A stretch of DNA of 64,000 nt. It comes from Octopus vulgaris. Its lineage: Eukaryota. How positions within the stretch are numbered: the stretch's first letter is position 1; the number at the start of each line of letters is the position of its first letter. The notes beneath the pieces were generated by a model. The model had not been told where the DNA came from. It did not search any database and saw only the letters and a program-made list of their open reading frames with translations. The position numbers and the translations under genes were made by a program. Of the stretch, positions 1,751-59,890 are shown piece after piece. The stretch covers positions 115,878,001-115,942,000 of the forward strand of contig OX597814.1 in the NCBI GenBank assembly GCA_951406725.2, given 5' to 3'.

Positions 1751-2645
1751 ATAGACTATTGACGAAGGTGCAACGCCATGGGTTCGCAGTCGTAAGGACA
1801 TGGTTACTAAGCGAACATTTTTATGCACACAGCCGCCATGCCCGCGTCTATATAACTGATATTTTACAATAACACGCAATGTGTGACTCCCTGGTCAGGC
1901 AAATGGAGAGAAGAGTAAAACAACAAACGGAGTGGGTGACCATCATAAACTCTGAAGGCAGGCGAATATCATTCAAAGACTTTTCTCGCGAGTCATTGGT
2001 ATCTCTACTAAATTGGAGGAAGCTGCTTATTAATTAGGTATACACAATTACTAAAAGTACTACGAGCAATTATTTCATGGTTGACCCATCTGAGAACATT
2101 TTTATAAATTCATGTTCTAAGAAATTTCCTGTAATTTCGATTTCTGAAGTTTCTTGAATGTTTAAATTCCAATTTCTCGCAAATTTAAATATTCATGCGT
2201 CCAATTCACAAATTTAAATATTCATTGCATTCACTGCAGAGTAATACATTCTCATTTGCAAAGTCTCTCAATTTCTCTTACAAGTTTTCATTCGCTATTT
2301 GGGAAACCGTCAGCTTATTCTATTAATGTATACGTAATAAATTATTATCTTAACGTATACGCAATTTATTATTTATCGAATGAAAAATTTTAAAATACTC
2401 GTATAATTTTTGAGCGCGTGATAGCTATAAGAGCCTAGAAAGTTGGGTAATTACTATTAGACGAGGAGAAAAAAAGTTACCGACAAGTACTCGAAACTTG
2501 CACCTTGTTCAGTTTCTAAACACTCTGTACCACTAAGCCAATATATACACAAACAAGTTGCACGAGCGACTTCAACAGTGACACACTCTCGCGAACACAC
2601 ATAGATACACTTACACACAAATGAAAGGCAATGAATGTGTGTTTG

Positions 2646-3030
2646 CTGTTCATTGACAAAATTTCGTGCTGCATTACTTCTGCGAAGTTTTGTCAGTGAA
2701 CAGGTTTCGAAGCGAAGAAAATATTTCGAGACAAATGAAATTTTAATGTTGAAGTGAAACTGGTACTACTTAAAAACAGGTGTTACGTCCAAAATATTTT
2801 AAATGTACGTTGTATGGAAGTGTAATGACACGCTAACTAGCCCTACCCTAAAACTGACCGTCCCCTTCATGTCGTTACGTAGATGCATCGGGACCTCTTT
2901 ATTTAAGTAGTGCAGTGAAACTAACGGTTTTTGTGTGTTCTTGAATGGCATACAAACACCTACGCTGCAATTTTTGTCTCAGCACACGATCTCGGATCAA
3001 GTCACTTGCTATTCAAGTACATCTCCGTAA
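2646..3030. mobile_element. Palindromic interspersed repeat (same family as 61561-61888), interrupted by a MITE
   Basis: Hairpin ctgttcattgacaaaatttcg...cgaagttttgtcagtgaacag. The downstream sequence matches 61700-61888. Confidence 0.65.
2762..2913. mobile_element. Small MITE with 9-bp TSD (Mutator-like)
   Basis: Short TIRs (tactacttaaa / tttaagtagtg) flanked by direct repeat agtgaaact (2753-2761, 2914-2922). The empty site is seen in the 61.7-kb paralogue. Confidence 0.65.
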
Positions 3031-3359
3031 TTTTAAAAACAAATCACTGTGGTTAAATGCCAGCAATGACCTCAGTCTCTCCAATATTTTGATTTCTGAA
3101 AAGAAACACTCGGAGGTAGGGAGTGAGGTTGCAAAAAAAAATTCATTGCTTAAATTTTCTTTATAGCATATTAATGTATTTATGGGGGAAAAATATTGAA
3201 AAACATCAATGCATGCGAGAGTGATAAAGAAACGAGGACGGTTGTCTTTAGATATGCTAGAAACAACAGCCAAATCGCCCTTAAGTCACTCACTTTTCCG
3301 TCTGAAAATATTAACAATTTAAAAAAAAAATTACTGAAAATGCTCTTCCCATAGTTTTG

Positions 3360-3440
<81 letters not shown>

Positions 3441-3446
3441 TTTGTT

Positions 3447-3635
3447 TTTACTCTCTTTTATTTGTCATTTGACTGCGGCCATGCTGGAGCACCACCTTTA
3501 ATCGAGCAACTCGACCCCGGGACTTCTTTGTAAGCCCAGTACTTATTCTATCGGTCTTTTTTGCCGAACCGCTAAATTACGTAGACATAAACACACCAGC
3601 ATCGGTTGTCAAGCAATGCTAGGGACACACACACA

Positions 3636-3666
<31 letters not shown>

Positions 3667-3831
3667 CACGACGGGCTTCTTTCAGTTTCCGTCTACCAAA
3701 TCCACTCACAAGGCTTTGGTCGGCCCGAAGCTATAGCAGGAAAAGACACTTGCCCAAGGTGCCACGCAGTGGGACTGAACCCGGAACCATGTGGTTGGTA
3801 AAGAAGTTACTTACCACACAGCCACTCCTGC

Positions 3832-3833
<2 letters not shown>
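3447..3833 (-). mobile_element. tRNA-derived SINE with CORE-like segment, internal microsatellite and LINE-like 3' tail (family A)
   Basis: Minus-strand A box (tggctgtgtgg) and B box (gggttcagtccc), segment ggcaccttgggcaagtgtctt, tail ggtgctccagcatggccgcagtcaaatgac. Many related partial copies occur at about 6205-6517, 10680-10970, 12170-12460, 12825-13120, 28478-28850, 43575-43980, 53850-54010 and 63240-63800. Confidence 0.85.
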
Positions 3834-3871
<38 letters not shown>

Positions 3872-3872
<1 letters not shown>

Positions 3873-4557
3873 CTTATTATAAAGGCAGATTTTATCTGCC
3901 TCCCTTTGTATCTTATAGAAATCTACAATATAGGATTTCTTCAATTACAATTTACCTAGCATTTTTAAGAGTAGAATGCATCGGGTCGTGCCAGGTCCAC
4001 TTTTTAAAATTTCAACCCCAATTAAGCAAAATTTACAGAAAACTCACATTGTGGTGTATATGTCAAATGTTTTTCTTAGTGTGGCTTACACCACACGCAA
4101 ACGCACACACACACAAACGGAGCGAATTGTTTCACTGACGCTATCACCCTTCTCCTCCTTTGTCTTTGCAAGTTGGCAGCTATTTAAGTGAAAACAGTGA
4201 ATCCGACAGCGATTAAGAAAATGAATTGGTACCTGAATGGAGTGAAAATTTAAAAACTGTTTCTTTCGGTGATTTTTCTGAAGAAACTGCACCAAGCCAC
4301 AGACTTTCCCAGAAGAGTAAAGCCTTAAACTATTTCTATTTACTTTTTCGAATGAGCCCATTTGAAATCATTACGGCAGAAACGAAACGTTACGCTAAAC
4401 GTAAACAAAACGAAAGAAAGGATAGTTTATTTCCCACAACCTTAAATGAAATTAAGGCCTATTTTGCCATAAATATTATTATGGGTATCAGAAAGTTACC
4501 CAGAATAACAAATTCTATCGTAAAATTTTGTTGTATACCCAATTGAATATTAGCTAA
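3872..4557 (+). mobile_element. Probable non-autonomous Helitron carrying a piggyBac transposase fragment
   Basis: A|TC start (tcttattataaa) and a degenerate CTAG-like end (gctaat). The internal ORF gives FEIITAETKRYA...TTLNEIKAYFAINIIMGIRKLP. Confidence 0.5.
4300..4510 (+). pseudogene. piggyBac (PGBD-like) transposase fragment
   Basis: ET.RYA and EIKAYF.I.I.MGI.KLP motifs are typical of the piggyBac transposase N-terminal core. Confidence 0.75.
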
Positions 4558-4919
4558 TAACCCATTTTCTATAGCGATGTTTGAACAAAATTTTAATAAT
4601 TTTATATTTTGAATTTAACTGTATCTATCTGCAATTAGAGTCACTTTGTGACAAAAATGATAGTATAGAATTGGTTGAGGACATTTCATTAAATTATCTT
4701 CCAAAAATCACATTAATATATTGATAAATAAAAAAGTTATTGTTGTTTAATGAAACCAGACTAAATTTATGATTATGTTAGAAATTAATTGAAACACATT
4801 TTGGTCAGAAATATAGTAACGAAAGGGTTAAGAAAAACCAAAAAATATTTTATTCTTTATAAATGTTGTGTTCAAAATAACATTTTCTTTTAAGAATGTG
4901 TATATAACTACGTGACATA

Positions 4920-5316
4920 TCTTTATATATAAGAGTGAAGTTGTGTGTCTGTCTCCTACGATTTAGATTCCTAACTACTCCCACATTTTGCGGTGCAGTG
5001 TAACCAAAACCGGGTATCTTATAGTCGTGAGCCATATCGAGCCCTTCTGGGTATTAGCGCGCGTCTACGATGAGTCTACGATTTAAAAAAATTTACCATG
5101 ATATTTTTCCATTTTAATGCATTTTTTTCGCTATTATATAAGGGAAGTAACTCTCTAAAAATATCTACGATGTGTCAACGATTTAAAAAGAAATTTACCT
5201 TAATTTTTTTTCCATTTTTAATGCATTTTTTCCCTATTTTTTGGCTATAACTCTCTAAAAATGCTTATATAGTTATTTCCCTTACAAACCCGAGCCACGC
5301 CGGGTGATACTGCTAG
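4920..5316 (+). mobile_element. Non-autonomous Helitron
   Basis: 5' TC after A, subterminal hairpin cccgagccacgccggg, 3' CTAG before T. Homologous to 52569-53079. Confidence 0.8.
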
Positions 5317-5833
5317 TATATATATATATATATATATATATGGCCAAAACAGGTCTGGAGAGGAATGCGGGAGGGGGTGTAAAAAAAAAAAGGCGTTTAC
5401 AAAACTTTTTTCAAAGATAGTTCCCATCATTTCGAAGGCTGTGGTTTAAAAAAAGAGGAAAATCTCCGAAAGAATTTTCCCCACAAATTTCTTTATAATC
5501 GTAATCTATGCCGTTTGAAAGGATTTGTATAAATTTTCATTAAAAGATACCTATCTCGAAAGTTATGAGGGGAAAAAATTCAGATCGGGTGAATTTTCAA
5601 AAACTCCCCTCTCCAACCGCTCGCAAAAATTCTTTCTCATAAATTCCTATATATTCTGATGCCACAACATCTAAGCGGTATTTGTAGAAAATTTTGTCAA
5701 TAAGTAACTTTTCTGGAGATCATGAGGCAACAAAGCCGGGGGCATATACATCTGTACTAATGCCCTTTTATTTATACAAATTTTTCATTTCGTTTTTATT
5801 TCATTCATTGTTTGCAACGTTCCCTCTCCCTCC

Positions 5834-6120
<287 letters not shown>

Positions 6121-6534
6121 CCTCTTTCTCTCTCTCTCTGTTGGTCTCTCTTATACACACATACTGTTTTCAAACTGTTTACATATTGATAAGTATATTT
6201 TATATATATTGCTTCAGTCATTTGATTGCGGCCATGCTGGAGCACCGCCTTTACTCGAACAAATCGAGCCCCAAGACTTAAGCCAAGTACTTACACTACC
6301 GGTCTCTTTTGCCGGACTGCTAAGTTGGGGGACGGAGACAAACCAGCATCGGTTGTCAGGCGATGGTAGGGGGATAAACTCGCGTTATATATATATATAT
6401 ATGATAGCCTTGTTTCCGTCTACCAAATCCAATCAGTCAGCCTGAGGCTATAGAAGACACTTGCCCAAGGTGCCACGCAATGGGACTGAATCCGAAACCA
6501 CATACACTCCTGCGCCTATATATATGTGCCACCA

Positions 6535-6980
6535 AACAGTGGCTCGTGAGCAGCGCACTGCAAGTGCAGATAAGACGATAGGAGACCAAAGCTAGGCTGA
6601 AAATTAGTGCTGAGGATACAGAAGCAAATGAGTTTACTGCGAGAAGACAATCCCAAGAGGCACAAGCAAAGTGTCCAAAAATCAAATTCCCTTCAGCAAG
6701 CAGTGAAGGGGCCTGGGAGATAATTTACAAAGAAATCTGCAAGGCTTTGTACAAGAACCTAGAAGTTTGTGGTGAAGTAATGTATAGTATTTGAAAAGAG
6801 CACTTTAGTATTAAAGAGATCAAGCAAACAGCCAGAAAGAAAAAGCAGCTAAGGAAGTTGGAGTCCATAAGATATAGGAAGAAATGCTTGAAGAAACAGT
6901 TGCGGACCTCGAGTCCCGAGGAGAAGGACAGTCTGAAGATTTGGAAAGACCTCAAAGAAAAGCACAGCACCCACAGCAGA
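6535..6980 (+). mobile_element. Fragment of HERO/NeSL-like non-LTR retrotransposon (pre-RT region)
   Basis: Translation PKIKFPSASSEGAWEII...QLRTSSPEEKDSLKIWKDLKEKH resembles the I.WP...W and S.EEK..L region upstream of RT in HERO-type elements. It contains a stop. Confidence 0.55.
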
Positions 6981-7223
6981 ACACAACTCTGATAACCAAA
7001 CACAACTCTGATAACCAAACACAACTCTGATAACCAAACACAACTCTGATAACCAAACACAACTCTGATAACCAAACACAACTCTGATAACCAAACACAA
7101 CTCTGATAACCAAACACAACTCTGATAACCAAACACAACTCTGATAACCAAACACAACTCTGATAACCAAACACAACTCTGATAACCAAACACAACTCTG
7201 ATAACCAAACAACTCTGATAACC
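6981..7223. repeat. 19-bp minisatellite (ACACAACTCTGATAACCAA)n, about 12-13 copies
   Basis: Perfect tandem period of 19 with no spacers. Confidence 0.95.
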
Positions 7224-7299
7224 GAGTTCTTACGGATTCATTTTCCTGTCCAAATCAATCTCCCATTTTTATTAGTTTCCTAAATGTCTTTTGTCTTAG

Positions 7300-7404
7300 G
7301 AATGTTTGAGTGCCACGGAAAAAGAAGTCCTGTTTGGAACTGCGATGATCAGTGAAGCCGAGTGCGCTGAATTCTTAAATAAGATAAGTAATGGAAATGA
7401 TATG
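7300..7404 (+). CDS. Internal coding exon (ECLSATEKEVLFGTAMISEAECAEFLNKISNGNDM)
   Basis: ttttgtcttAG acceptor, GTGAGT donor, 105 nt, phase 0-0, no stop in this frame. Confidence 0.7.
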
Positions 7405-8240
7405 GTGAGTAACGTTCTATGACGTTATATTCGATAACTTATGTTTTGTAATCAATTCAAGCATATGAGTTCAATTGATTGGTGCAATTTCTTTTCAAGT
7501 TGGCCGTCTCAGATATGGAGAATCTCTTGGAGAGTAAAAACTGGGCGCTATACAGCCAATGCTTATGCAGTGAAAAGATTGAAATAACCAACCACTTTTG
7601 TTACTGGGGAGTTATAGCGAATGTTTTACACAGCGGTACCAGTAAAGTCTTGGTAAGTAACCAGACATATAGTTCATTGTCACTTTAGCGTGAAGTCTCT
7701 CACCTTAATCGTAACCCTGAATAAGTTATTTCATAGCTTTCACTACGTCTATTGCGTTAGGCCTCAGCTTTAATTCTCGACGCTTATTTGCCGCTAGGAT
7801 TTGTTTAGAAATGCTTTATCGTTTGTAGATATTTAACTTGAAAATTTGGCCAGGAATTGCTCTATGAAATGATTATTGTTGAGGCGGATCATCTGTTACA
7901 TCGGATTTGTATCATAAACTTAGATTTACATAACTTAGAACTGTATGTGTGGAGGTGCGTGACTCAGTGGTTAGGACGTTGCCCCACTGTTCGTAAGATT
8001 GTTTCGATTGCTGGGCGATGCGTTGCGTCGTTGAACGAAACACTTCGTTCTACGTTGCTCGTCGAACAAAAGTGAGTAATCCTGCGATGGACCAGCGTCC
8101 CGTCCAAGAGGGGAATATGTACACCACAATCTGGCGAACTGGTCTTATGAGCCCTTGGCTTGGGAAGGACCTGTGATCTCTATTTTGTTTTTGATATATG
8201 TGTGTATTTTAGGAACTAGTTTGCTTAATTTTTCTTGCAG

Positions 8241-13139: not shown

Positions 13140-16100
13140 CTGCCTTCGTTCTCTTCTTTATTTCTCTTCTATCATTCTCTTCTTTTCTCACTCGTTCTCT
13201 TGCTCTCCTCTCTCTCGTTCTCTTTCTCTTCTCTCTTCGTTCCCTTCTCTATTTCGTTCTCGTTCTCCTTTTTTCTCTCGTCTATTTTCCTCTTTTCTCT
13301 CGTTCTGATTCTTATTTCTCTCTTCTCTTTTCCTTCTATCTTCTGTCTTCTCTCTTCTCTTTTCCCCCTTGCCTCTTCTATCTTGCCTCTTGTATCTTGC
13401 CCCTTCCTTCTTGCCCCTTCCTTCTTGCCCCTTCTATCTTCTCCCTTCCTTCTTGCCCCTTCTATCTTCTCCCTTCCTTCTTGCTCCTATTTTCTCTCTA
13501 CCTTCTTGCCCCTTCTATCTTCTCCCTTCCTTCTTGCTCCTATTTTCTCTCTACCTTCTTGCCCCTTCTCTCTTCCTTCATGCCCCTTCTATCTTCCTTC
13601 ATGCCCCTTCTCTCTTCCTTCTTTCCCCTTCTCTCTTCCTTCTTTCCCCTTCTATCTTCTCTCTTCCTTCTTTCCCCTTCTATCTTCTCTCTTCCTTCTT
13701 TCCCCTTCTATCTTCTCTCTTCCTTCTTTCCCCTTCTATCTTCTCTCCTTGCTCCTTCTCTCTTCCTTCTTGCTCCTTCTCTCTTCCTTCTTGCTCCTTC
13801 TCTCTTCCTTCTTGCTCCTTCTCTCTTCCTTCTTGCTCCTTCTCTCTTCCTTCTTGCTCCTTCTCTCTTCCTTCTTGCCCCTTTTCTCTTCCTTCTTGCC
13901 CCTTCTCTCTTCTCACTTGCCTCTTCTCTCTTCCTTCTTTCCCCTTCTATCTTCTCTCTTTGCCCCTTCTCTCTTCTCACTTGCCTCTTCTCTCTTCCTT
14001 CTTTCCCCTTCTATCTTCTCTCTTCCTTCTTTCCCCTTCCATCTTCTCTCTTCCTTCTTTCCCCTTCCATCTTCTCTCTTCCTTCTTTCCCCTTCAATCT
14101 TCTCTCTTCCTTCTTTCCCCTTCCATCTTCTCTCTTCCTTCTTTCCCCTTCCATCTTCTCTCTTCCTTCTTTCCCCTTCCATCTTCTCTCTTCCTTCTTT
14201 CCCCTTCCATCTTCTCTCTTCCTTCTTTCCCCTTCCATCTTCTCTCTTCCTTCTTTCCCCTTCCATCTTCTCTTCCTTCTTTCCCCTTCCATCTTTCCCC
14301 TTCCATCTTCTCTCTTCCTTCTTTCCCCTTCCATCTTCTCTCTTCCTTCTTTCCCCTTCCATCTTCTCTCTTCCTTCTTTCCCCTTCCATCTTCTCTCTT
14401 CCTTCTTTCCCCTTCCATCTTCTCTCTTCCTTCTTTCCCCTTCCATCTTCTCTCTTCCTTCTTTCCCCTTCCATCTTCTCTCTTTCTTCTTTCCCCTTCC
14501 ATCTTCTCTCTTCCTTCTTTCCCCTTCCATCTTCTCTCTTCCTTCTTTCCCCTTCCATCTTCTCTCTTCCTTCTTTCCTCTTTCATCTTGCCTCTTCTAT
14601 CTTCTCTCTTTCATCTTGCCTCTTCTATCTTCTCTCTTCCATCTTGCCCCTTCTATCTTCTCTCTTCCATCTTGCCCCTTCTATCTTCTCTCTTCCATCT
14701 TGCCCCTTCTATCTTCTCTCTTTCATCTTGCCCCTTCTATCTTCTCTCTTCCTTCTCCCCCTTCTATCCTTCTTTCCCCTTCTCTCTTCCTTCTTTCCCC
14801 TTCTCTCTTCCTTATTTCCCCTTCTCTCTTCCTTATTTCCCCTTTTCTCTTCCTTTTTTCCCCTTCTCTCTTCCTTCTTTCCCCTTCTCTCTTCCTTCAT
14901 GCCCCTTCTCTCTTCCTTCTTTCCCCTTCCATCTTCTCTCTTTCATCTTGCCCCTTCTATCTTCTCTCTTCCTTCTTGTCTCTTCTATCTTCTCTCTTCC
15001 ATCTTGCCCCTTCTATCGTCTCTCTTCCTTCTCCCCTTCTCTCTTCCTTCTTTCCCCTTCTCTCTTCCTTATTTCCCCTTCTCTCTTTTTTTCCCCTTCT
15101 CTCTTCCTTCTTTCCCCTTCTCTCTTCCTTCTTTCCCCTTCTCTCTTCCTTCTTGCCCTTTCTATCTTCTCTCTTCCTTCTTTCCCCTTCTCTCTTCCTT
15201 CTTTCCCCTTCTCTCTTCCTTCTTTCCCCCCTCTCTCTTCCTTTCCCTCTCTCTCTTCCTTCATGCCCCTTCTCTCTTCCTTCTTTCCCCTTCCATCTTC
15301 TCTCTTCCTTCTTTCCCCTTCTATCTTCTCTTTCATCTTTCCCCTTCTATCTTCTCTCTTTCATCTTGCCCCTTCTATCTTCTCTCTTCCTTCTTGCCTC
15401 TTCTTTCTTCTCTCTTCCATCTTGACCCTTCTATCTTCTCTCTTCCATCTTGACCCTTCTATCTTCTCTCTTCCATCTTGACCCTTCTATCTTCTCTCTT
15501 CCATCTTGACCCTTCTATCTTCTCTCTTCCATCTTGACCCATCTATCTTCTCTCTTCCATCTTGACCCTTCTATCTTCTCTCTTCCATCTTGACCCTTCT
15601 ATCTTCTCTCTTCCATCTTGCCCAATCTATCTTCTCTCTTTCATTTTGCCCATTCTATCTTCTCTCTTTCATTTTGCCCAATCTATCTTCTCTCTTTCAT
15701 TTTGCCCAATCTATCTTCTCTCTTTCATTTTGCCCAATCTATCTTCTCTCTTTCATTTTGCCCAATCTATCTTCTCTCTTTCATCTTGCCCCTTCTATCT
15801 TCTCTCTTTCATCTTGCCCTTTCTATCTTCTCTCTTTCATCTTGCCCTTTCTATCTTCTCTCTTTCATCTTGCCCCTTCTATCTTCTCTCTTCCTTCTTG
15901 CCCTTTCTATCTTCTCTCTTCCTTCTTGCCCCTTCTATCTTCTCTCTTCCTTCTTGCCCCTTCTATCTTCTCTCTTCCTTCTTGCCCCTTCTATCTTCTC
16001 TCTTCCTTCTTGCCCCTTCTATCTTCTCTCTTCCTTCTCCCCCTTCTGTCTTTCTTTCCCCTTCTCTCTTCCTTCTTTCCCCTTCTCTCTTCCTTCTTTC

Positions 16101-18305
16101 CCCTTCTCTCTTCCTTCTTTCCCCTTCTCTCTTCCTTCTTTCCCCTTCTCTCTTCCTTCTTTCCCCTTCTCTCTTCCTTCTTTTCCCTTCTCCCTTCCTT
16201 CTTTTCCCTTCTACCTTCCTTCTTTCCCCTTCTCTCTTCCTTTTTTCCCCTTCTCTCTTCCTTTTTTCCCCTTCTCTCTTCCTTCTTTCCCCTTCTCTCT
16301 TCCTTCTTTCCCCTTCTCTCTTCCTTCTTTCGCCTTCTATCTTCTCTCTTCCTTCTTTCCCCTTCTCTCTTCTCTCTTCCTTCTTTCCTCTTCTATCTTC
16401 TCTCTTCCTTCTCCTCCTTCTATCTTTCTTTTCCCTTCTCTCTTCCTTCTCCCCCTTCTATCTTTCTTTTCCCTTCTCTCTTCCTTCTCCCCCTTCTATC
16501 TTTCTTTTCCCTTCTCTCTTCCTTCTCCCCCTTCTCTCTTCCTTCTTTCCCCTTCTGTCTTCTCTCTTCCATCTTACCCCTTGTATCTTCTCTCTTCCAT
16601 CTTGCCCCTTGTATCTTCTCTCTTCCATCTTGCCCCTTGTATCTTCTCTCTTCCATCTTGCCCCTTGTATCTTCTCTCTTCCATCTTGCCCCTTGTATCT
16701 TCTCTCTTCCATCTTGCCCCTTCTATCTTCTCTCTTCCATCTTGCCCCTTCTATCTTCTCTCTTCCATCTTGACCCTTCTATCTTCTCTCTTCCATCTTG
16801 ACCCTTCTATCTTCTCTCTTCCATCTTGACCCTTCTATCTTCTCTCTTCCATCTTGACCCTTCTATCTTCTCTCTTCCATCTTGACCCTTCTATCTTCTC
16901 TCTTCCATCTTGACCCTTCTATCTTCTCTCTTCCATCTTGACCCTTCTATCTTCTCTCTTCCATCTTGACCCTTCTATCTTCTCTCTTCCATCTTGACCC
17001 TTCTATCTTCTCTCTTCTATCTTGACCCTTCTATCTTCTCTCTTTCATCTTGACCCTTCTATCTTCTCTCTTTCATCTTGACCCTTCTATCTTCTCTCTT
17101 TCATCTTGCCCCTTCTATCTTCTCTCTTCCATCTTGCCCTTTCTATCTTCTCTCTTCCATCTTGACCCTTCTATCTTCTCTCTTCCATCTTGACCCTTCT
17201 ATCTTCTCTCTTCCATCTTGACCCTTCTATCTTCTCTCTTCCATCTTGACCCTTCTATCTTCTCTCTTCCATCTTGCCCCTTCTATCTTCTCTCTTCCAT
17301 CTTGCCCCTTCTATCTTCTCTCTTCCATCTTGCCCCTTCTATCTTCTCTCTTCCATCTTGGCCCTTCTATCTTCTCTCTTCCATCTTGGCCCTTCTATCT
17401 TCTCTCTTCCATCTTGGCCCTTCTATCTTCTCTCTTCCATCTTGGCCCTTCTATCTTCTCTCTTTCATCTTGCCCCTTCTATCTTCTCTCTTCCATCTTG
17501 CCCCTTCTATCTTCTCTTCCATCTTGGCCCTTCTATCTTCTCTCTTCCATCTTGGCCCTTCTATCTTCTCTCTTCCATCTTGGCCCTTCTATCTTCTCTC
17601 TTCCATCTTGGCCCTTCTATCTTCTCTCTTCCATCTTGCCCCTCCTATCTTCTCTCTTTCATCTTGCCCCTTCTATCTTCTCTCTTCCATCTTGCCCCTT
17701 CTATCTTCTTTCTTCCATCTTGACCCTTCTATCTTCTCTCTTCCATCTTGACCCTTCTATCTTCTCTCTTCCATCTTGACCCTTCTATCTCTCTCTTCCA
17801 TCTTGACCCTTCTATCTTCTCTCTTCCATCTTGACCCTTCTATCTTCTCTCTTCTATCTTGACCCTTCTATCTTCTCTCTTCCATCTTGCCCCTTCTATC
17901 TTCTCTTCCATCTTGACCCTTCTATCTTCTCTCTTCCATCTTGCCCCTTCTATCTTCTCTTCCTTCTTGACCCTTCTATCTTCTCTCTTCCATCTTGACC
18001 CTTCTATCTTCTCTCTTCCATCTTGACCCTTCTATCTTCTCTCTTTCATCTTGACCCTTCTATCTTCTCTCTTTCATCTTGCCCCTTCTATCTTCTCTCT
18101 TCCATCTTGCCCCTTCTATCTTCTCTCTTCCATCTTGCCCCTTCTATCTTCTCTCTTCCATCTTGGCCCTTCTATCTTCTCTCTTCCATCTTGGCCCTTC
18201 TATCTTCTCTCTTCCATCTTGGCCCTTCTATCTTCTCTCTTCCATCTTGGCCCTTCTATCTTCTCTCTTTCATCTTGCCCCTTCTATCTTCTCTCTTTTC
18301 CATCT
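13140..18305. repeat. Polypyrimidine/polypurine satellite with 21-bp and 28-bp units built from a 7-mer
   Basis: Units ccttctc-tcttcct-tctttcc and ccttcta-tcttctc-tcttcca-tcttgac. Confidence 0.95.
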
Positions 18306-28904: not shown

Positions 28905-30002
28905 GAGGGACGTTCAATAAGTAATGCCCCTGACCCACTTCCCATAGCAGTAGAGCAACGAAACTTGGCACAGCTATTAGTCTTTTTCTACATAGGAACC
29001 ACCCATAGTTACGCATTTCTCCCATTGTTTGATGCAGCTCTGGAGACCGTTTTTGTAGAAGACCCCAGCTTGGTCCTCCAACCTCGACGTGACTTCAGAA
29101 ATCAAGGCTGCATCATCTGGGAAACGCTTTCCTTTCAAAAACAACTTCATGACTGGGAAGAGGTGAAAATCAGAGGGTGCAAGGTCAGGAAAGTAGGGGG
29201 ATGGGGGCGGAGTTCATAGCCGCACACCTGTGCTTCTGATCTGGCGACACGCGAGTTGTGGACCGGAGCGTTGTCCTTGCCTTCTTTGGAGGAGGTGAGT
29301 CACGGTGCTTCCACTGCATTGACTAGGCTTTGGTCTCTGGATCATCGTGATGGACCCAGGTTTCATCCTGTGTAATCAGTCTTTTGAAAAATTTTGACTC
29401 ATCTTCTTGGCACATCTCCAAATTCACCCTCGAGCACTCGACGCGTTCTTGCTTCTGGAAAGGCGTGAGCAACCTGGGCATCCATCTGGCAGACACCTTT
29501 TGCATATGCAAATGGTCATGAATGATAGTTTCCACAGACGCGGTACTAATCTTGACCTCATGGGCTATTTGGCGAATAGTTATGCGTCGATCTTCCAAAA
29601 TGGCAGCCTCAACTTGACGGACAGATGCCTCATCAATGGCAGAAGGGGCGACCAGATCTGGGAGCTGTTTCCACAGAGTTCCGACCATGTTTGAATTCAC
29701 GATGCGAGCGTTTTACAAGGTCATATGATGGGGCATCATCACCATAAGTTACTTTCATTTCATCAAAAGTCTCCCGTGGTGTGCGTCCTTTCAAATACAA
29801 AAACCGGATCACTGTTCGACACTCAACAGGCTCCATTTCACACTTGACTCGGTTCAAACACCTGTAAATCAGAAACCACAATTAATTCAGAGCTGTAATT
29901 TGCCACTTACTCTATAGAGATATAAATGATTGCACATGAAAAATTTCAGCTAGATCAAATAAATGCAAGTGGGTCAGAGGCATTACTTATTGAACGTCCC
30001 TC

Positions 30003-30039: not shown

Positions 30040-32394
30040 TTAAGTTTCAGCTCAGCCTGCGGCCATGCTGATGCATCGCCGTTTTGCGCTACACTGTTAT
30101 TACTAGGAACCTCCTCTAATATGTGGCACCTGATGAAGAATAGAGTTTTATATAGCTACCCTCATTTGCACCTCTTGCCGTGAGGTAGGCTCATCTGGGA
30201 CTGTCGACAGGAAGAGATCCAGCTTTGATTTAAAAACCCCTACATCTACTTTGTGCAAGTTCCTCAGACTCTTTGGGAGAATATTAAAAAGCTGTGGGCC
30301 CTTGAAACCTAGGCTGTTACAGTAACTGGTCCTGAAGCGTGATAGCATTGCTGGGATCTTTGGCAACATGCAGTGTCGTCCCTTTCTGGCATTGGTGTAG
30401 CTTACAATGCCAAAATTTGGCACAATTCCTCCCAGGATCTTCCAGATATATATTACTGCCTACCTCTCCCGTCTTCTCTCCAGGGAGTAGAGTCTTAGCT
30501 GTTTCAACCTTTCCCAGTAGCTGAGCTGTTGCAAAGAGACGATCTTCTTTGTAAATTTTCTCTGGATTGCTTCAAGGTCCGCTGTTAATCTCACACTGGT
30601 GGGTGACCATAGCTGTGAGCAGTAATCCAGGCGGCTGAGGACGAATGTCCGCCAGAGGACCATCATGGTTTCCTTATCTCTGGTTCTGAATGTTCTTAGG
30701 ATCCATCCATCCAGTCGTCTGCACTTTGTCGCCATCCTGGTAATGTGCAGTTGGAAAGCGGTATCATCACTCATGTCGATACCCAGGTCCCTCACTGACT
30801 TAGGCTCTGGGATTGAAATTCCATGTGGACCGGTTTACCATGTAGGTTTAATATTCAGTTTTGGATGCTGGTAGCGCAAGGCCTGGAATTTTTCAGCATT
30901 AACCTGCATATTATTATCCTCAGCCCATCTGTAAATTGAGTCCAAATCGTTCAGCAGGTGTGCAACATCGCTGGGGTTCTGTATTTTCTGTGAGACTTTC
31001 GTATCATCTACATAGCTTGCCAGAGTGGCTATCCGGGCATTTGAGGGCATATCTGAGAGGGCCACTATAAAAAGCAGTGATCACAAGACAGTGCCCTGTG
31101 GATCACCGCTCACTATTTGTGTGTTCATTGAGGTGGCTCCATTAGCCACTACTGCCTGACTCCTATCTTTCAGGAAGTCATGTAACCACACTCCAAGTTT
31201 TCCAGCTATGCCGAGGTCACGCAGTTTGTGGCATATCATACCATGATTCACCTTGTCAAAAGCTTTTGCAAAATCAAGGTATATTACATCCACATTTGAT
31301 TTGTTGAGTAACTGCCTCAACACCCAGTCATAATGTTGTAAGAGCTGAGTCAGGCAGCTCCTACCTGGTCGAAAACCATGTTGGGTATCACTTAGCAAGT
31401 TATTTTCTTCAAGGAATGCGATTAATTTCCCTCTGACTATCCGTTCCATGACATTGCTGATGTGTGAAGTCAGAGAGATAGGCCTATAGTTTTTGGCATC
31501 TGCTCTACTTCCCCCTTTATATATTGGGCATATTATTCCCTCCTTCAGCTTGCTTGGCAGTTTGCCATTTGTAAGAATGCTCAGGAAGAGAATCTTGAGG
31601 GGTTTTGCCAGGGCATGTTTACACGCTTTGAGGTGGATTGCTGGGAAACCGCCAGGACCAGCAGTTGAGTTTGTGTCCACTTCATCTATGGCTAGTAGTA
31701 TATCTTCTTCGCTAATGTCAATGTATTCCATTGTAACTGCCTCGCTGGTCATAGGTGAGGCGGCAAAGAAGTCCACTGGTTCGTTCACTTGTCTGTGTTC
31801 CAACGGGGTGGTAAAGACACTTTTGAACTGGTCATTCAGTATCTCATTGATCTTCGTTGGACTGTCTGTGAGGGATCCATCCTTTTCGATGAGGGGACCT
31901 ATCTTGTAGTGCACTGAGGCTGTTTCTTTCGCGTAATGAAAGAAGGCCTTTGGGTTTGACTTAATGTTTTTTATAACCCAGGCTTCTTTGTCTGCTTTCT
32001 CCTTCACATAGGATTGTTGCAGCCTTTTTTCGATCTCTATCAGTGTTGTTTTTAGGCAGGACGTTTCGCTACTTTTGGGATGTTGGTTGAGTCGATTTGC
32101 AACCTTCGTCCGTCGTCTCACGAGGATCTTCCTATCTCTTGGAATCTTACTCCTATTTGTTTTGGTCTTGTGCTCCGGGACGTATTTTTGGCATATGGCT
32201 TGCACAAAAGACATGAAACATTCTAGTTTCATGTCAATGTCTGGTGTGGAGAGAAATTTCGGCCAGTCCTCTCTGAGGATCTCTTTTTAGATTGATTTCC
32301 AATCTGCTTTGTGGAAGTTCAGATTGGAGAGATTTCGGGTGCTTCCTTTAGGCTGTATGTCTCTGGTTACTTTCGGCTCAAGCATAGACAGCTC

Positions 32395-32397
<3 letters not shown>
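30038..32397 (-). mobile_element. 5'-truncated CR1/L2-group LINE, RT pseudogene
   Basis: NYRPISLTS, QHGFRPGRSC, VIYLDFAKAFDKVNH, GDPQGTVL, YVDDTK and RLDYCSQLWSP motifs, with frameshifts and stops. The 3' tail is cagcatggcc...gctgaaac. Confidence 0.93.
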
Positions 32398-32446
<49 letters not shown>

Positions 32447-33114
32447 GTATGAATGTATGTATGTATATATATATATATGTATGTATATATATATGTATGT
32501 ATGTATATATATATGTATGTATATATATATGTATGTATATATATATGTATGTATATATATATATATGTATGTATATATATATGTATGTATATATATATGT
32601 ATGCATGTATATATGTATGCATGTATATATATATGTATGTATATATATATATATATGTATGTATATATATATGTATGTATATATATATATATGTATGTAT
32701 ATATATATATGTCTATGTATGTATATGTATATATAGGTATATGTATATATAGGTATATATATATATATATAGGTATATGTATATATAGGTATATGTATAT
32801 ATAGGTATATATATATATATATATGTATATGTATATATAGGTATATATATATATATGTATGTATATATATATATATGTATGTATATATATATGTATGTAT
32901 GTATGTATATATGTATGTAATACTAAGTAATTAAGGGTTTAGCAACGAATTGCCTCACCAACACACCGAATTTAGAAATAGCAGTCAAAGAGATATAGCT
33001 ATTCCTTCTACTAAAAGGGGGATCTCAGCAAAAACACAGCACTTAAAAGGCAAACACAGACAGGTAAGAAAGAAAGAATGAAATGACGGCAATCCATCAT
33101 GCAATTTTAAGTTA

Positions 33115-33206
33115 CCTACGGACGTACGTTTCGAGATCAAGTTTTAGGATATCATAAGAATTAGAAAATTCTACTTTACCCAGACTTCTTCTCTCATCGG
33201 CGCAGG
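33115..33206 (-). ncRNA. Type I hammerhead ribozyme motif (also 33704-33795, 34293-34384, 34881-34972)
   Basis: CCUGCG-CCGAUGA-GAGA..53 nt..UCUC-GAAA-CGUACG-UC-CGUAGG. Stems I and II pair, stem III is palindromic, and the cleavage triplet is GUC. Confidence 0.8.
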
Positions 33207-36138
33207 ATACTACAATTGTGAATAATTGTATATTAAATTTTGAGATACTAGAATGCGTCATCTCAACTCAGTGTCAGAGCGAGCCAAAGCATGACCAGTA
33301 CCACGAAATTCAAAGTTTGAATGAAAGTTTGTGTCACCAGCCCCCTTCCACCCGCGTGTAGCCAAGACAAAATGCTGTGGTCATTTACTGGGATAAAATA
33401 TGGTTATCAGTAATAATAAAAGGGTGAAATTAATTAATTAGGGATAATTATCAATTACACCAAGTAGATTTCGGTATGTAAAAGCCCCATTCGAGGAAAA
33501 TTTAAGTAATACTAAGTAATTAAGGGTTTAGCAACGAATTGCCTCACCAACACACCGAATTTAGAAATAGCAGTCAAAGAGATATAGCTATTCCTTCTAC
33601 TAAAAGGGGGATCTCAGCAAAAACACAGCACTTAAAAGGCAAACACAGACAGGTAAGAAAGAAAGAATGAAATGACGGCAATCCATCATGCAATTTTAAG
33701 TTACCTACGGACGTACGTTTCGAGATCAAGTTTTAGGATATCATAAGAATTAGAAAATTCTACTTTACCCAGACTTCTTCTCTCATCGGCGCAGGATACT
33801 ACAATTGTGAATAATTGTATATTAAATTTTGAGATACTAGAATGCGTCATCTCAACTCAGTGTCAGAGCGAGCCAAAGCATGACCAGTACCACGAAATTC
33901 AAAGTTTGAATGAAAGTTTGTGTCACCAGCCCCCTTCCACCCGCGTGTAGCCAAGACAAAATGCTGTGGTCATTTACTGGGATAAAATATGGTTATCAGT
34001 AATAATAAAAGGGTGAAATTAATTAATTAGGGATAATTATCAATTACACCAAGTAGATTTCGGTATGTAAAAGACCCATTCGAGGAAAATTTAAGTAATA
34101 CTAAGTAATTAAGGGTTTAGCAACGAATTGCCTCACCAACACACCGAATTTAGAAATAGCAGTCAAAGAGATATAGCTATTCCTTCTACTAAAAGGGGGA
34201 TCTCAGCAAAAACACAGCACGTAAAAGGCAAACACAGACAGGTAAGAAAGAAAGAATGAAATGACGGCAATCCATCATGCAATTTTAAGTTACCTACGGA
34301 CGTACGTTTCGAGATCAAGTTTTAGGATATCATAAGAATTAGAAAATTCTACTTTACCCAGACTTCTTCTCTCATCGGCGCAGGATACTACAATTGTGAA
34401 TAATTGTATATTAAATTTTGAGATACTAGAATGCGTCATCTCAACTCAGTGTCAGAGCGAGCCAAAGCATGACCAGTACCACGAAATTCAAAGTTTGAAT
34501 GAAAGTTTGTGTCACCAGCCCCTTCCACCCGCGTGTAGCCAAGACAAAATGCTGCGGTCATTTACTGGGATAAAATATGGTTATCAGTAATAATAAAAGG
34601 GTGAAATTAATTAATTAGGGATAATTATCAATTACACCAAGTAGATTTCGGTATGTAAAAGCCCCATTCGAGGAAAATTTAAGTAATACTAAGTAATTAA
34701 GGGTTTAGCAACGAATTGCCTCACCAACACACCGAATTTAGAAATAGCAGTCAAAGAGATATAGCTATTCCTTCTACTAAAAGGGGGATCTCAGCAAAAA
34801 CACAGCACTTAAAAGGCAAACACAGACAGGTAAGAAAGAAAGAATGAAATGACGGCAATCCATCATGCAATTTTAAGTTACCTACGGACGTACGTTTCGA
34901 GATCAAGTTTTAGGATATCATAAGAATTAGAAAATTCTACTTTACCCAGACTTCTTCTCTCATCGGCGCAGGATACTACAATTGTGAATAATTGTATATT
35001 AAATTTTGAGATACTAGAATGCGTCATCTCAACTCAGTGTCAGAGCGAGCCAAAGCATGACCAGTACCACGAAATTCAAAGTTTGAATGAAAGTTTGTGT
35101 CACCAGCCCCCTTCCACCCGCGTGTAGCCAAGACAAAATGCTGTGGTCATTTACTGGGATAAAATATGGTTATCAGTAATAATAAAAGGGTGAAATTAAT
35201 TAATGAGGGATAATTATCAATTACACCAAGTAGATTTCGGTATGTAAAAGACCCATTCGAGGAAAATTTAAGTAATACTAAGTAATTAAGGGTTTAGCAA
35301 CGAATTGCCTCACTAACACACCGAATTTAGAAATAGCAGTCAAAGAGATATAGCTATTCCTTCTACTAAAAGGGGGATCTCAGCAAAAACACAGCACTTA
35401 AAAGGCAAACACAGACAGGTAAGAAAGAAATTCATTCAAACTTTGAATTTCGTGGTACTGGTCATGCTTTGGCTCGCTCTGACACTGAGTTGAGATGACG
35501 CATTCTAGTATCTCAAAATTTAATATACAATTATTCACAATTGTAGTATCCTGCGCCGATGAGAGAAGAAGTCTGGGTAAAGTAGAATTTTCTAATTCTT
35601 ATGATATCCTAAAACTTGATCTCGAAACGGACGTCCGTAGGTAACTTAAAATTGCATGATGGATTGCCGTCATTTCATTCTTTCTTTCTTATCTGTCTGT
35701 GTTTGCCTTTTAAGTGCTGTGTTTTTGCTGAGATCCCCCTTTTAGTAGAAGGAATAGCTATATCTCTTTGACTGCTATTTCTAAATTCGGTGTGTTGGTG
35801 AGGCAATTCGTTGCTAGACCCTTAATTACTTAGTATTACTTAAATTTTCCTCGAATGGGGCTTTTACATACCGAAATCTACTTGGTGTAATTGATAATTA
35901 TCCCTAATTAATTAATTTCACCCTTTTATTATTACTGATAACCATATTTTATCCCAGTAAATGACCACAGCATTTTGTCTTGGCTACACGCGGGTGGAAG
36001 GGGGCTGGTGACACAAACTTTCATTCAAACTTTGAATTTCGTGGTACTGGTCATGCTTTGGCTCGCTCTGACACTGAGTTGAGATGACGCATTCTAGTAT
36101 CTCAAAATTTAATATACAATTATTCACAATTGTAGTAT

Positions 36139-36230
36139 CCTGCGCCGATGAGAGAAGAAGTCTGGGTAAAGTAGAATTTTCTAATTCTTATGATATCCTA
36201 AAACTTGATCTCGAAACGTACGTCCGTAGG
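36139..36230 (+). ncRNA. Type I hammerhead ribozyme motif in the inverted arm (also 35550-35641, stem III variant CGGACG)
   Basis: The same motif is read directly on the plus strand. Confidence 0.8.
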
Positions 36231-36309
36231 TAACTTAAAATTGCATGATGGATTGCCGTCATTTCATTCTTTCTTTCTTACCTGTCTGTGTTTGCCTTTT
36301 AAGTGCTGT

Positions 36310-39067
<2,758 letters not shown>

Positions 39068-47897: not shown

Positions 47898-50221
47898 TGT
47901 AAAAATATGAGTCTAAGAGACGTAGAATAGGAGATGGTATAGTTAAGGAACTAGAAGAAGCCTTGAGGACTGGTAATGCGGACCAAGCGAGGATGAAAAG
48001 ACTGGAGTTAAACCAGCATCTTGAAGCCCAACACATAGGAAGTATTGCCAGAGCTAAGTTACGTGCAATGGGAAGTGAAAGAATCAAGGCCGCTGGATGG
48101 GCCCGAGTGGTGGAAACTCGGCAAGGAAATAGTTCCACTATTCGGTCTTTGACGAATCAAAATGGTGTCTTGGTAAACGAAGCCGAGAAAATGTGTGAGG
48201 CCTTTCGGGAGTACTTCGCCCAGCTGTTCGGGAGTAACGGCGGTCCTGGTGGTGGGAGAGCCCTCGAGAACTTTCTTGCCGGGATGCTGTGTCTCTCGCG
48301 GTCGGATGCGGAGTCTTGCAAAGGGCCAATCACGCCTGTGGAGGTAATGGAAGCTTTGCCCAACTGTAAAGCGGGTAAGTCGCCGGGACTTGATGATCTT
48401 CCGTACGAGCTGTATAAATGTATGCCAGACTTGCTCGGGCACCTACTGGCTGACGTGTACGCGAACTGGCAACAGAATGAGTTTATCCCCAGATCTGTGC
48501 ACCGGGGAGTAGTGACGTTGGTCAGAAAGGACCCGCACAAGGGGGACGTTATAGAGAACTTCAGGCCCATCACTCTGTTAAACACAGAAGTGAAGATTTT
48601 GGCCAAGGTCTTAGCAAAAAGGTTGGCGCGTGTCGCGAATGGTATAGTCGGGGAAGCACAGACATGTGCCATCCCAGGAAGAACCATTCAGGATCCCCTA
48701 CATCTTATTCGCTATACCACAGAGAGGGATAGTAATAAATCTGGCAAAGATGGGGCATTGGTACATTTAGACCAGCCTAAAGCTTTTGATAGGGTTGGCC
48801 ATCGATACTTTCAGACAGCGTTGTTTGGTACTGGACGGAGGGATCGGTTAAGTTGCTAGGAGTTTGGTTTGGACCAGGCCTTCAGATAGAGAAGAACTGG
48901 ACGGAGGTATTGAGCAGGATGGCTGCAGTAGTCAAGACCTGGTTTTGGCGGTGGCTATCCCTGAACGGGAGGGCGGAGGTGGCCAATGTGTTTATCGCAT
49001 CGGTCATTACCTGACGCCTGACCGTCGTGCCCTGTCCGGATTCGTGGTTGATTAGGTTGGAGATACAGCTCTTTCGCTTTTTGTGGAAAGGTAGGTCGCC
49101 ACTTGTGAAACGCTCTGTCTGCTGTCAAAAGTCTTTAAAGGGAAGTTTAGGGATGCCTTGGTTAATGATGCGCAGGCATGCGTTGAGGTTGAGTCATCTT
49201 TGGATTCTCCTGGATAGTAAACGGGTCTGGTCTCCGCTAGCCAGACTAATGTTCCCCGAGTTCAAAAGTTTTTGCGAACAGGAAGTGGTCAAGTGAATAG
49301 CATAAATAATGCCGTAACGCCCTCTTGCTATTCCGGCGCTCGGGCAACGCCAGCTGTGGGGGTTCCACACGGATTTTATATAGTGGGTTGGTATAGTCTG
49401 AATGTGACGATGGCCTGGGGGCGACTCTAGGTCTCGGATTTATTCAACTGGACTGCTTGTTTCACCGTACATTCGGGTTGAGAACGTTGGACAACTTTAA
49501 AAAGTCCTTGACCTGGCAATGCTACAGAGGTGCCTTGCTCGTTTGGGATAAGCTCGCAAGACACGGTAAGCGTCAGTCGTCGACCTGTCCAAGATGCAGG
49601 GGCGGGGGGTGGGCAGGGAAACCGTCCCTCACGCTATTGTTCAGTATCCGGAGATATCTGAAATGTGGGCTTATGCTGAACACCTGTTGTCCGGCAAAGG
49701 AAGAGTACAGCTATCGATTGAGTCACTTATAAAAACTGACCCACCGGGAGTTTTAACGAACGAAGGTAAGAATAGTTTTTTCACGGTTGTAGCAATAGCG
49801 AAAGAGGCAGTATGGAAGACTAGGATAAAAGGAATTAAGATAGGCAACTTTATCTCTGGCCACAATTTACGATCATTTTTTTCTTTTCATTTGAAAAGGA
49901 AGGTTTGGCTGGAGAAGAGGTGTCTGTCGGAGTGTACGTTCCAAAAGAGATGGAAGCATGTTGCACGAGTACTGTGCGTGCAAGGAACCGTGTGAATAGA
50001 CGAAAAAAAAAAGAACAAAAAAAGGTACCAGCATTAGATCGGGGCTTGTGGGGTCGTCGCTTCATTTGTGTTGTCCCTGTATTGTTAATTTCATTCGATT
50101 TTCTATATATTGTGTTTAATTTTTAAAAGTCACATTTTATGTAAAATCATACCGCATTACTGATCCCATCAATTTTTCTGTCGATTTCTATGTTTAGCCC
50201 TCGGTGGGCAATAAAGAAATT
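47898..50221 (+). mobile_element. 5'-truncated, internally deleted Tx1-clade (L1 group) LINE
   Basis: KSPGLDDLPYELY, NFRPITLLNTEVKILAKVLAKRL, QTCAIPGRTIQD, LDQPKAFDRVGH, FRFLWKG...GSLGMP and zinc-knuckle CPRC..ETVPH motifs. The 3' UTR ends aataaagaaat. Confidence 0.9.
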
Positions 50222-50572
50222 GGTATTTCGTCTGCCGCTACGTTCTGAGTTCAAATTCCGTCGAGGTCGACTTTGCCTTTCATCCTTTTGGGGTCGATAA
50301 ATTAAGCATCAGTTACGCACTAGGGTCGATGTAATCGACTTAATCTGTTTGTCTGTCCTTGTTTGTCCCCTCTGTGTTTAGCCCCTTGTGGGCAGTAAAG
50401 AAATAGGTATTTCGTCTGCCGTTACGTTTTGAGTTCAAATTCCGCCGAGGTCGACTTTACCTTTTATCCTTTCGGGGGCGATAAATTAGGTACCAGTTGC
50501 GTACTGGGGTCGATCTAATCGACTAGCCCCTTTCCCCGAAATTTTGAGCCTAGTGCCTAGAGTAGAAACGAA
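50222..50572 (+). mobile_element. Family B SINE tandem units, 3' side of the Tx1 insertion
   Basis: Two units that each start at ggtatttcgtctgcc. Confidence 0.85.
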
Positions 50573-59479: not shown

Positions 59480-59890
59480 TTTTTATTTCTTTATTGTCCA
59501 CACGGGGCTAAACATAGAAGGGACAAAGAAGGCCAGACAAACGGATTAAGTCGATTACATCGACTTCAGTGCGTAACTGGTGCTTAATTTATCGACCCCG
59601 AAAGGATGAAAGGCAAAGTCGATCTCGGCGGAATTTGAACTCAGAACGTAAAGACAGACGAAATACATATTTCTTTACTACCCACAAGGGGCTAAACATA
59701 GAGAGGACAAACAAGGACAGACAAAGCGAGATTAAGTCGATTATATTGACCCTAGTGCGTAACTGGTACTTATTTAATCGACCCCGAAAGGATGAACGGC
59801 AAAGTCGACCTCAGCAGCATTTGAACTCAGAACTTTAACGGCAGACGAAATACACCCGGCATGCTAACGTTTCTGCCAGCTCGCCGCCTT
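59480..59890 (-). mobile_element. Family B SINE tandem units with Tx1-type tails (similar at 60945-61368)
   Basis: Head, tail and restart structure as at 47608. Confidence 0.85.

Follow-up and report, generated by a model that had tools for sequence, protein, structure and literature searches.

Animal non-LTR retrozymes, as defined by Cervera and de la Pena (2020; PMC7229834), are non-coding tandem repeats with one type I hammerhead ribozyme (HHR) per unit. Circles have been demonstrated for the retrozymes of coral, mussel and axolotl, and it was proposed that they are copied by Penelope-like elements (PLEs) or LINEs (PMC7229834). Li, Clavereau and Pollet (2026; bioRxiv 10.64898/2026.07.22.740005) described families, 51-972 bp in size, with a relationship to PLE termini. 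In Xenopus, 24 of 57 retrozyme families matched known TEs, nearly all of them PLEs; one of nine retrozyme dimers was cleaved and eight were not, and a local amplification of PLE termini was proposed. Both papers call the mobilising enzyme and the template RNA of animal retrozymes open. PLE insertions contain partial tandems, an inverted 5'-truncated copy and a tail of 30-40 bp at one end, and they are biased towards microsatellites (PMC3846280; PMC8557442). Frangieh et al. (2024; PMC11167929) reported in vitro work with a purified PLE protein, which nicked AT-rich DNA on both strands and extended each. Synthesis began behind the HHR at two internal sites, the stretch between them being the genomic tail, and HHR cleavage was dispensable for insertion in vitro. 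The Chlamys MRC1-type elements (Craig et al. 2021, PMC8557442) are non-autonomous PLE derivatives that form multicopy head-to-tail insertions.

We analysed a 64,000-nt stretch of the Octopus vulgaris genome (the window). An earlier note, made from the sequence alone, had described about 4.3 near-identical, non-coding 589-bp monomers and about 1.5 inverted ones inside a (TA/TG)n tract. This description was confirmed, with 4.27 minus-strand and 1.49 plus-strand monomers that are 99% alike, TA/TATG repeats on both sides, and no long open reading frame in the array, where the largest frame has 84 codons. The length of 589 was the dominant period, with 1507 of 1926 positions matching, compared with ~550 at most other periods. 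The two arms are joined head-to-head in the HHR sense, so that their 5' ends lie inside and their 3' ends face the TA tract. Numbering the monomer from the base after the predicted cut (position 1 = window 35636), arm 1 has its 5' end at position 46 and its outer 3' end at position ~204. Arm 2 runs from position 385 to position 85, an atypical outer end given the family norm of ~300. The array neither contains nor adjoins an ORF with reverse transcriptase (RT) and GIY-YIG parts, as an autonomous PLE would, and no tRNA gene or tRNA-like part was found. Its tandem non-coding units with a type I HHR each, like its low GC, are those of animal non-LTR retrozymes. The earlier note had held 589 nt to be longer than the metazoan retrozymes of this kind, but the size is unexceptional within the published range of 51-972 bp.

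Table 1. Features of the array and its surroundings (window coordinates).
Feature	Position	Strand	Remarks
Left TA/TATG microsatellite, insertion target	32398..32916	.	repeat tract 32398-32919
Arm 1	32917..35430	-	about 4.27-4.28 tandem 589-nt monomers (BLAST); 99.2% identity to reference monomer
Type I HHR motif	33115..33206	-	predicted cut 3' of 33121
Type I HHR motif	33704..33795	-	predicted cut 3' of 33710
Type I HHR motif	34293..34384	-	predicted cut 3' of 34299
Type I HHR motif	34881..34972	-	predicted cut 3' of 34887
Arm 2, inverted, head-to-head	35431..36309	+	1.49 monomers; 99.8% identity to reference monomer
HHR motif, stem III non-palindromic (one change)	35550..35641	+	predicted cut after 35635
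Most conserved part of the monomer	35740..35940	+	~70% identity to 562-nt sister family
9-bp helix enclosing site 1	35786-35794/35867-35875	+	double and wobble changes in 13 sequences
Site 1 (monomer positions 195-213)	35830..35848	+	preferred outer end, 64/118 outer ends
Site 2 (monomer positions 288-318)	35923..35953	+	second preferred outer end, 41/118 outer ends
Type I HHR motif, CCGAUGA core (U4C), 53-nt stem II insert, palindromic stem III	36139..36230	+	predicted cut after 36224
Right TA/TATG microsatellite, insertion target	36310..39064	.	repeat tract 36309-39064

Other repeats occupy the same window. A broken LINE-type RT element with an RVT_1 match (30148-32397, minus strand) has its 5' part ending at the TA tract. 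Next to it are broken frames (29323-29881, minus strand) that, in our assumption, resemble a mariner-type transposase. A 5-kb pyrimidine-rich satellite with periods of 21, 28 and 42 nt lies at 13332-18297, and a SINE-like repeat of 184-186 nt forms two-copy tandems at 50187-50524 and 59484-59854.

Six HHR motifs of the form CCTGCG-CCGATGA-GAGA-[53]-TCTC-GAAA-CGTACG-TC-CGTAGG were found in the array. Five were identical; the copy at 35550 reads CGGACG, which breaks its stem III palindrome. The claim that every complete monomer carries this motif therefore stood for all six as a description, except that one of them has lost the palindrome. The palindromic stem III was present in the other five, and stem III was short and mostly palindromic across families. 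The 8-nt palindrome has a predicted duplex energy of -9.8 kcal/mol, and HHRs with short palindromic stems III act as dimers (PMC4209133). The HHR skeleton did not occur in any of 5000 shuffled monomers on either strand. An extension of stem I through internal loops, also proposed from the sequence, appeared in the predicted fold (z -2.4). The catalytic core was canonical at every position but one: position 4 is C in 126 of 127 cores of this family (family A), compared with U in 32 of the 36 others. [quoted passage not shown] An Infernal-type scan had been suggested as a check on the ribozyme, and the Rfam scan of the array returned no hammerhead at E<=10, only TA-repeat microRNA noise. This is probably attributable to the 53-nt insert and the C at position 4.

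The stems were also compared among 12 family representatives. Stem I was paired in 66 of 72 cells, including several double changes, compared with 51.5 in shuffles, and stem II pairs 2-4 were formed in 34 of 36 cells compared with 28.5; none of 10000 shuffles reached the observed pairing, although the count is biased towards pairing since the representatives were picked by a script requiring 4 of 5 stem I pairs and the families are related. The conservation of the stems among dispersed copies, on which the ribozyme reading had been made to depend, was thus observed, and the apparent covariation across families serves as support rather than proof.

The array in the window belongs to a family that is dispersed in the genome, and is a young representative of it. 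A DNA search of the genome (2.8 Gb in 227 contigs) gave 201 matches at the best 40 of 2077 candidate places, and most of the full-length ones were 98-100% identical. Exact copies of a 21-mer from the family's HHR numbered 250 genome-wide, those of a 21-mer spanning the cut 443, and a degenerate motif common to sister families occurred 2800 times; the reversed-pattern control gave 0 for each. Copies on many contigs were 97-100% identical, and arrays ranged from less than one to 10.4 units, many insertions being one unit or less. This multi-copy dispersal from monomers to multimers, in a genome in which active PLEs co-exist, resembles that of animal non-LTR retrozymes. The sister families, of 562-594 nt, are older: their units measure 586, 594, ~566 and 562-564 nt, with identities of 88, 84 and ~70%, the last restricted to monomer positions 109-296. 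The earlier note had taken the near-identity of the monomers for a recent event and the whole for a retrozyme-type family; with dispersed copies, arms that are 99% alike, covarying stems and one type I HHR per non-coding tandem unit, both views are upheld. The literature consulted on octopus or cephalopod retrozymes, hammerheads, Penelope elements and internal initiation on retrozymes does not describe the family, which Repbase/Dfam, subscription papers or supplements may contain.

The ends of the insertions were mapped in the 40 best-scoring loci (the window and 39 others) and in another 38 chosen by pattern; these were the ones out of the first 100 matches that were absent from the first set. 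Outer 3' ends fell at site 1 or site 2 in 58 of 67 cases in the first 40 loci, after the viewing of which the site windows (195-213 and 288-318) had been set, and in 47 of 51 cases in the 38 further loci, for which the windows were reused unchanged; 8.5% was expected. Of the 118 outer ends in both sets, 105 belonged to the two sites, which lie ~200 and ~300 nt behind the predicted cut, and the stretch from site 1 to site 2 forms a 100-nt tail. In nearly every case the outer end was fused to (TA)n. Within the monomer, the stretches most resembling (TA)n (positions 127-128, 480-481 and 561) hardly served as ends, and the ends of older families lay at the identical two places. On this distribution, site 1 appears to be a start of reverse transcription.

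Inversions were present at 40 of the 78 loci. Site 1 was paired with site 2 in 27 of them, one combined two site 2 ends, none combined two site 1 ends, and the remaining 12, including the window, had an atypical end. The strict pairing (27 of 28 classifiable inversions) has a probability of ~1e-7 against even chance. Each locus had its own inversion point and a random 5' truncation. Two fixed internal 3' ends with a one-sided tail, head-to-head 5'-truncated inversions and a microsatellite target are the marks of a non-autonomous PLE, and the fixed ends, tail and inversions back the earlier proposal that a Penelope-like enzyme mobilises the monomer. As a separate observation, nearly all insertions had long pure (TA)n on both sides, raising the question of whether the enzyme may lengthen the run.

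The most conserved part of the monomer (Table 1) is likely to be an RNA element bound by the PLE protein. Besides the helix enclosing site 1, a hairpin precedes site 2 in the 13 sequences compared.

Autonomous PLEs were recovered from the same genome. A GIY-YIG family search led to a young family with a 781-aa RT and GIY-YIG frame, a CxxxxCxxC linker and, by its alignment ends, a ~40-nt tail. Its very young copies (L130 at 1930-7172, G000:C16 near 20.84 Mb, and L131-L145) carry a 479-aa frame upstream that matches no Pfam family, and the hammerhead in its pLTR, inspected by eye, is a U3-A8 core variant. A second very young family (L290-L319) encodes 727 aa in a ~3.35-kb unit with a minimal HHR and frequent inversions; its clade has 17048 candidate places in the genome. 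By eye, its copies end in TA 37 nt behind the HHR in ~18 cases, and one visible case ends 73 nt further, giving a 73-nt tail. A third, old family was also recovered. As the young PLEs end in TA behind their HHR, an enzyme of this type exists in the genome and acts in a similar way. The earlier note had called for a search for an autonomous Penelope-like element sharing the ends of the monomer. None with a homologous end was found among 109 PLE loci (20+30+30+29, a small fraction of 6136 and 17048 candidate places), apart from retrozyme scraps in neighbouring TA tracts (L147, L107, L126) and two matches of 24-30 nt. Conversely, tblastn of the 781-aa protein against 58+30+77 retrozyme loci placed PLE ORF pieces near eight of them. 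Those at L229 and L247, the two loci inspected over their whole length, were rejected as helper linkage because a TA run separates them from the repeat, and the PLE end beside L278 was rejected as a partner because no retrozyme sequence follows it in the 12 relatives listed. Pieces of retrozymes and PLE ends accumulate in shared TA runs (L147 at 7085-7440, L108 at 570-630, L229 and L247). There is also a second, unrelated group of hammerhead elements (L108 at 455 and 208; L138, L149, L141; L247 at 2740-2880) with long stem II inserts, a 6-nt palindromic stem III and TA-run ends, one of which has C at core position 4.

Taken together, the array is probably one insertion of a dispersed, HHR-bearing 589-nt family. 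The family is likely a non-autonomous retrozyme that a Penelope-like RT-endonuclease copies in trans, its template being partly cut RNA. At the sequence level this reading draws on the dispersal, the tandem and head-to-head structure, the two fixed ends, the (TA)n flanks, the covarying stems, the helix at site 1 and the 5' ends at the cut. The arrays would be transcribed into multimers, and the HHR would cut some junctions and spare others, likely working as a dimer held by its palindromic stem III and at a rate that U4C likely reduces. A PLE protein, likely a dimer, would bind the conserved 100-300 region and nick both strands of a (TA)n run. One nicked strand would prime cDNA at site 1 and its opposite at site 2, and each cDNA would extend back over uncut junctions until it falls off or reaches a cut 5' end. 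Once the two cDNA ends are joined, the product would be inverted head-to-head and carry a tail on one side only. Further growth of some arrays may follow by unequal crossover or occasional circle copying.

In the classical cycle, the monomers would instead be cut and ligated to circles, and a PLE RT would roll round a single circle from the same two start sites. This cycle is compatible with copying from partly cut RNA and not exclusive of it, and we consider it rather unlikely as the explanation of the arrays. Differences per 100 nt amounted to 0.31 within an arm, 0.46 between opposite arms and 1.2 between loci, and 12 private variants were fixed in every unit of one array (9 of 40 loci), several of them in both arms, which fits an origin from a single monomer. 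The junctions at the cut were seamless, the circular monomer was predicted to be 65% paired (linear fold z -4.3), and circles are known for the coral, mussel and axolotl retrozymes cited above. The contigs of all four sequencing runs inspected contained the monomer and its 589 go-back joint, a joint that tandem DNA gives as well, no run being recorded as RNA. Nonetheless, in 5 of 34 inverted loci both arms shared unit-specific variants in register, one of them an 8-nt insertion, which argues against an origin of these arms from one monomeric circle. Over the 34 loci, six variant states were in register, four were out (three in one noisy copy) and 111 occurred in one arm only; the window had no unit-specific variant common to both arms. 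The many insertions of one unit or less, some of which begin at the cut, also speak against the circle, and some arms at L248, L196 and L044 begin at the cut yet cross further junctions. Imperfect period-2 and period-3 variant patterns in the window, L031 and L058 suggest later duplication of the DNA. Changes at position 1 were considered as a ligation scar and rejected because this base lies in a CpG. Overall, there are weak signs that partly cut linear multimers were a real template, with circles possible.

The HHR might also be a dead passenger in the youngest family, in which U4C is fixed, with uncut read-through RNA as the sole template and 5' ends near the cut left by RT pausing at stem I. 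This is very improbable. The near-fixation of C4 in family A, the lowered in vitro activity of U4C (PMC3088659) and PLE insertion in vitro without cleavage (PMC11167929) would agree with it, but U4C retains enough activity in vivo (PMC3088659), stalling before a helix would be expected further 3', and family-A copies start at or beside the cut (L229 at position 1, L044 at 2 and L063 at 3). The copy at L229 is clean, spans positions 1 to 305 and stands alone in TA. From 58 loci picked by an HHR-independent motif, 36 supplied 56 arms with 85% identity or more and 40 nt or longer; seven of their 5' ends lay at -2..+8 of the cut, where 0.89 would be expected (P 4e-5, hazard ratio 7.9). In the set of 38 further loci, which required an intact junction, 2 of 55 did so compared with 1.9 expected, and a near-cut excess in the 40 best-scoring loci (8/70) was set aside because loci there needed a full-length match. 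The pile-up suggests cleavage in vivo despite the fixed U4C, although these ends could instead reflect RT stalling at a circle's ligation scar or at stem I. A DNA satellite or an orphaned pLTR that recombination or slippage during replication has multiplied in TA tracts, with RNA playing no current part, seems hardly credible to us. The periodic variant patterns do show some duplication at the DNA level, local amplification of PLE termini has been proposed (bioRxiv 10.64898/2026.07.22.740005), and no partner PLE was found among the 109 loci. However, repeated retrotransposition is indicated by copies that are 97-100% identical on many contigs and share two fixed 3' ends, with 5' truncation at random and inversion points particular to each locus, and this end pattern appears already largely to refute the satellite. 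Copying in trans from partly cut RNA is thus preferred; the thin in-register test, the missing excess at the cut in the 38 further loci, the want of a homologous PLE in 109 loci and the atypical right end in the window (position 85) are among the points that count against it, as are the PLE insertion without cleavage in vitro and the uncleaved Xenopus dimers.

The element is a retrozyme of a known class, and the known kind already covers elements of this type. It differs from animal non-LTR retrozymes in the 53-nt stem II insert and the fixed U4C of its HHR, and in the PLE marks at its insertion ends (two sites, tail and inversion), which we did not find analysed in the available sections of PMC7229834 and bioRxiv 10.64898/2026.07.22.740005. 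In contrast to the 24 of 57 Xenopus families that match TEs, the octopus monomer had no homology to the PLE termini tested. With PLE insertions that carry an inverted pLTR it shares partial tandems, 5' truncation, head-to-head inversion, a one-end tail, a pair of starts behind the HHR and a target that is (TA)n or AT-rich, but it lacks an ORF and its start sites lie 200 and 300 nt behind the cut. Its tail of ~100 nt compares with 30-40 nt in published PLEs and with 40 and 73 nt in the two autonomous octopus families. The Chlamys elements are likewise non-autonomous PLE derivatives in multicopy insertions. However, their 3' sequence is generally also found in an autonomous family, and most are without HHRs, whereas the octopus element keeps its HHR and has no matching partner among the 109 PLE loci. 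Its distinctive features are the long tail, the strict pairing of sites, the footprint at the cut site, U4C and the failure to find a homologous helper among these loci; they make the question of mechanism testable.

We tentatively suggest, as a possibility that falls short of likely, that this is a long-lived retrozyme lineage whose sequence no longer resembles its helper's at all and which retains just a folded RNA landing pad where the PLE dimer binds. The two subunits would start at one site each on the same multimeric RNA, and the weakened (U4C) HHR would tune the number of units that stay joined. If so, the genome records ribozyme cleavage in vivo, and the arrays arose from partly cut linear RNA and not by rolling circle. 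The genome-scale footprints tie a retrozyme to the two-site priming reaction of PLEs, and the 200-nt conserved RNA element is a testable candidate for a cis signal. The octopus genome also houses no fewer than two very young autonomous PLE families as candidate helpers, and the retrozyme family offers in vivo evidence on whether PLE-type hammerheads cut.
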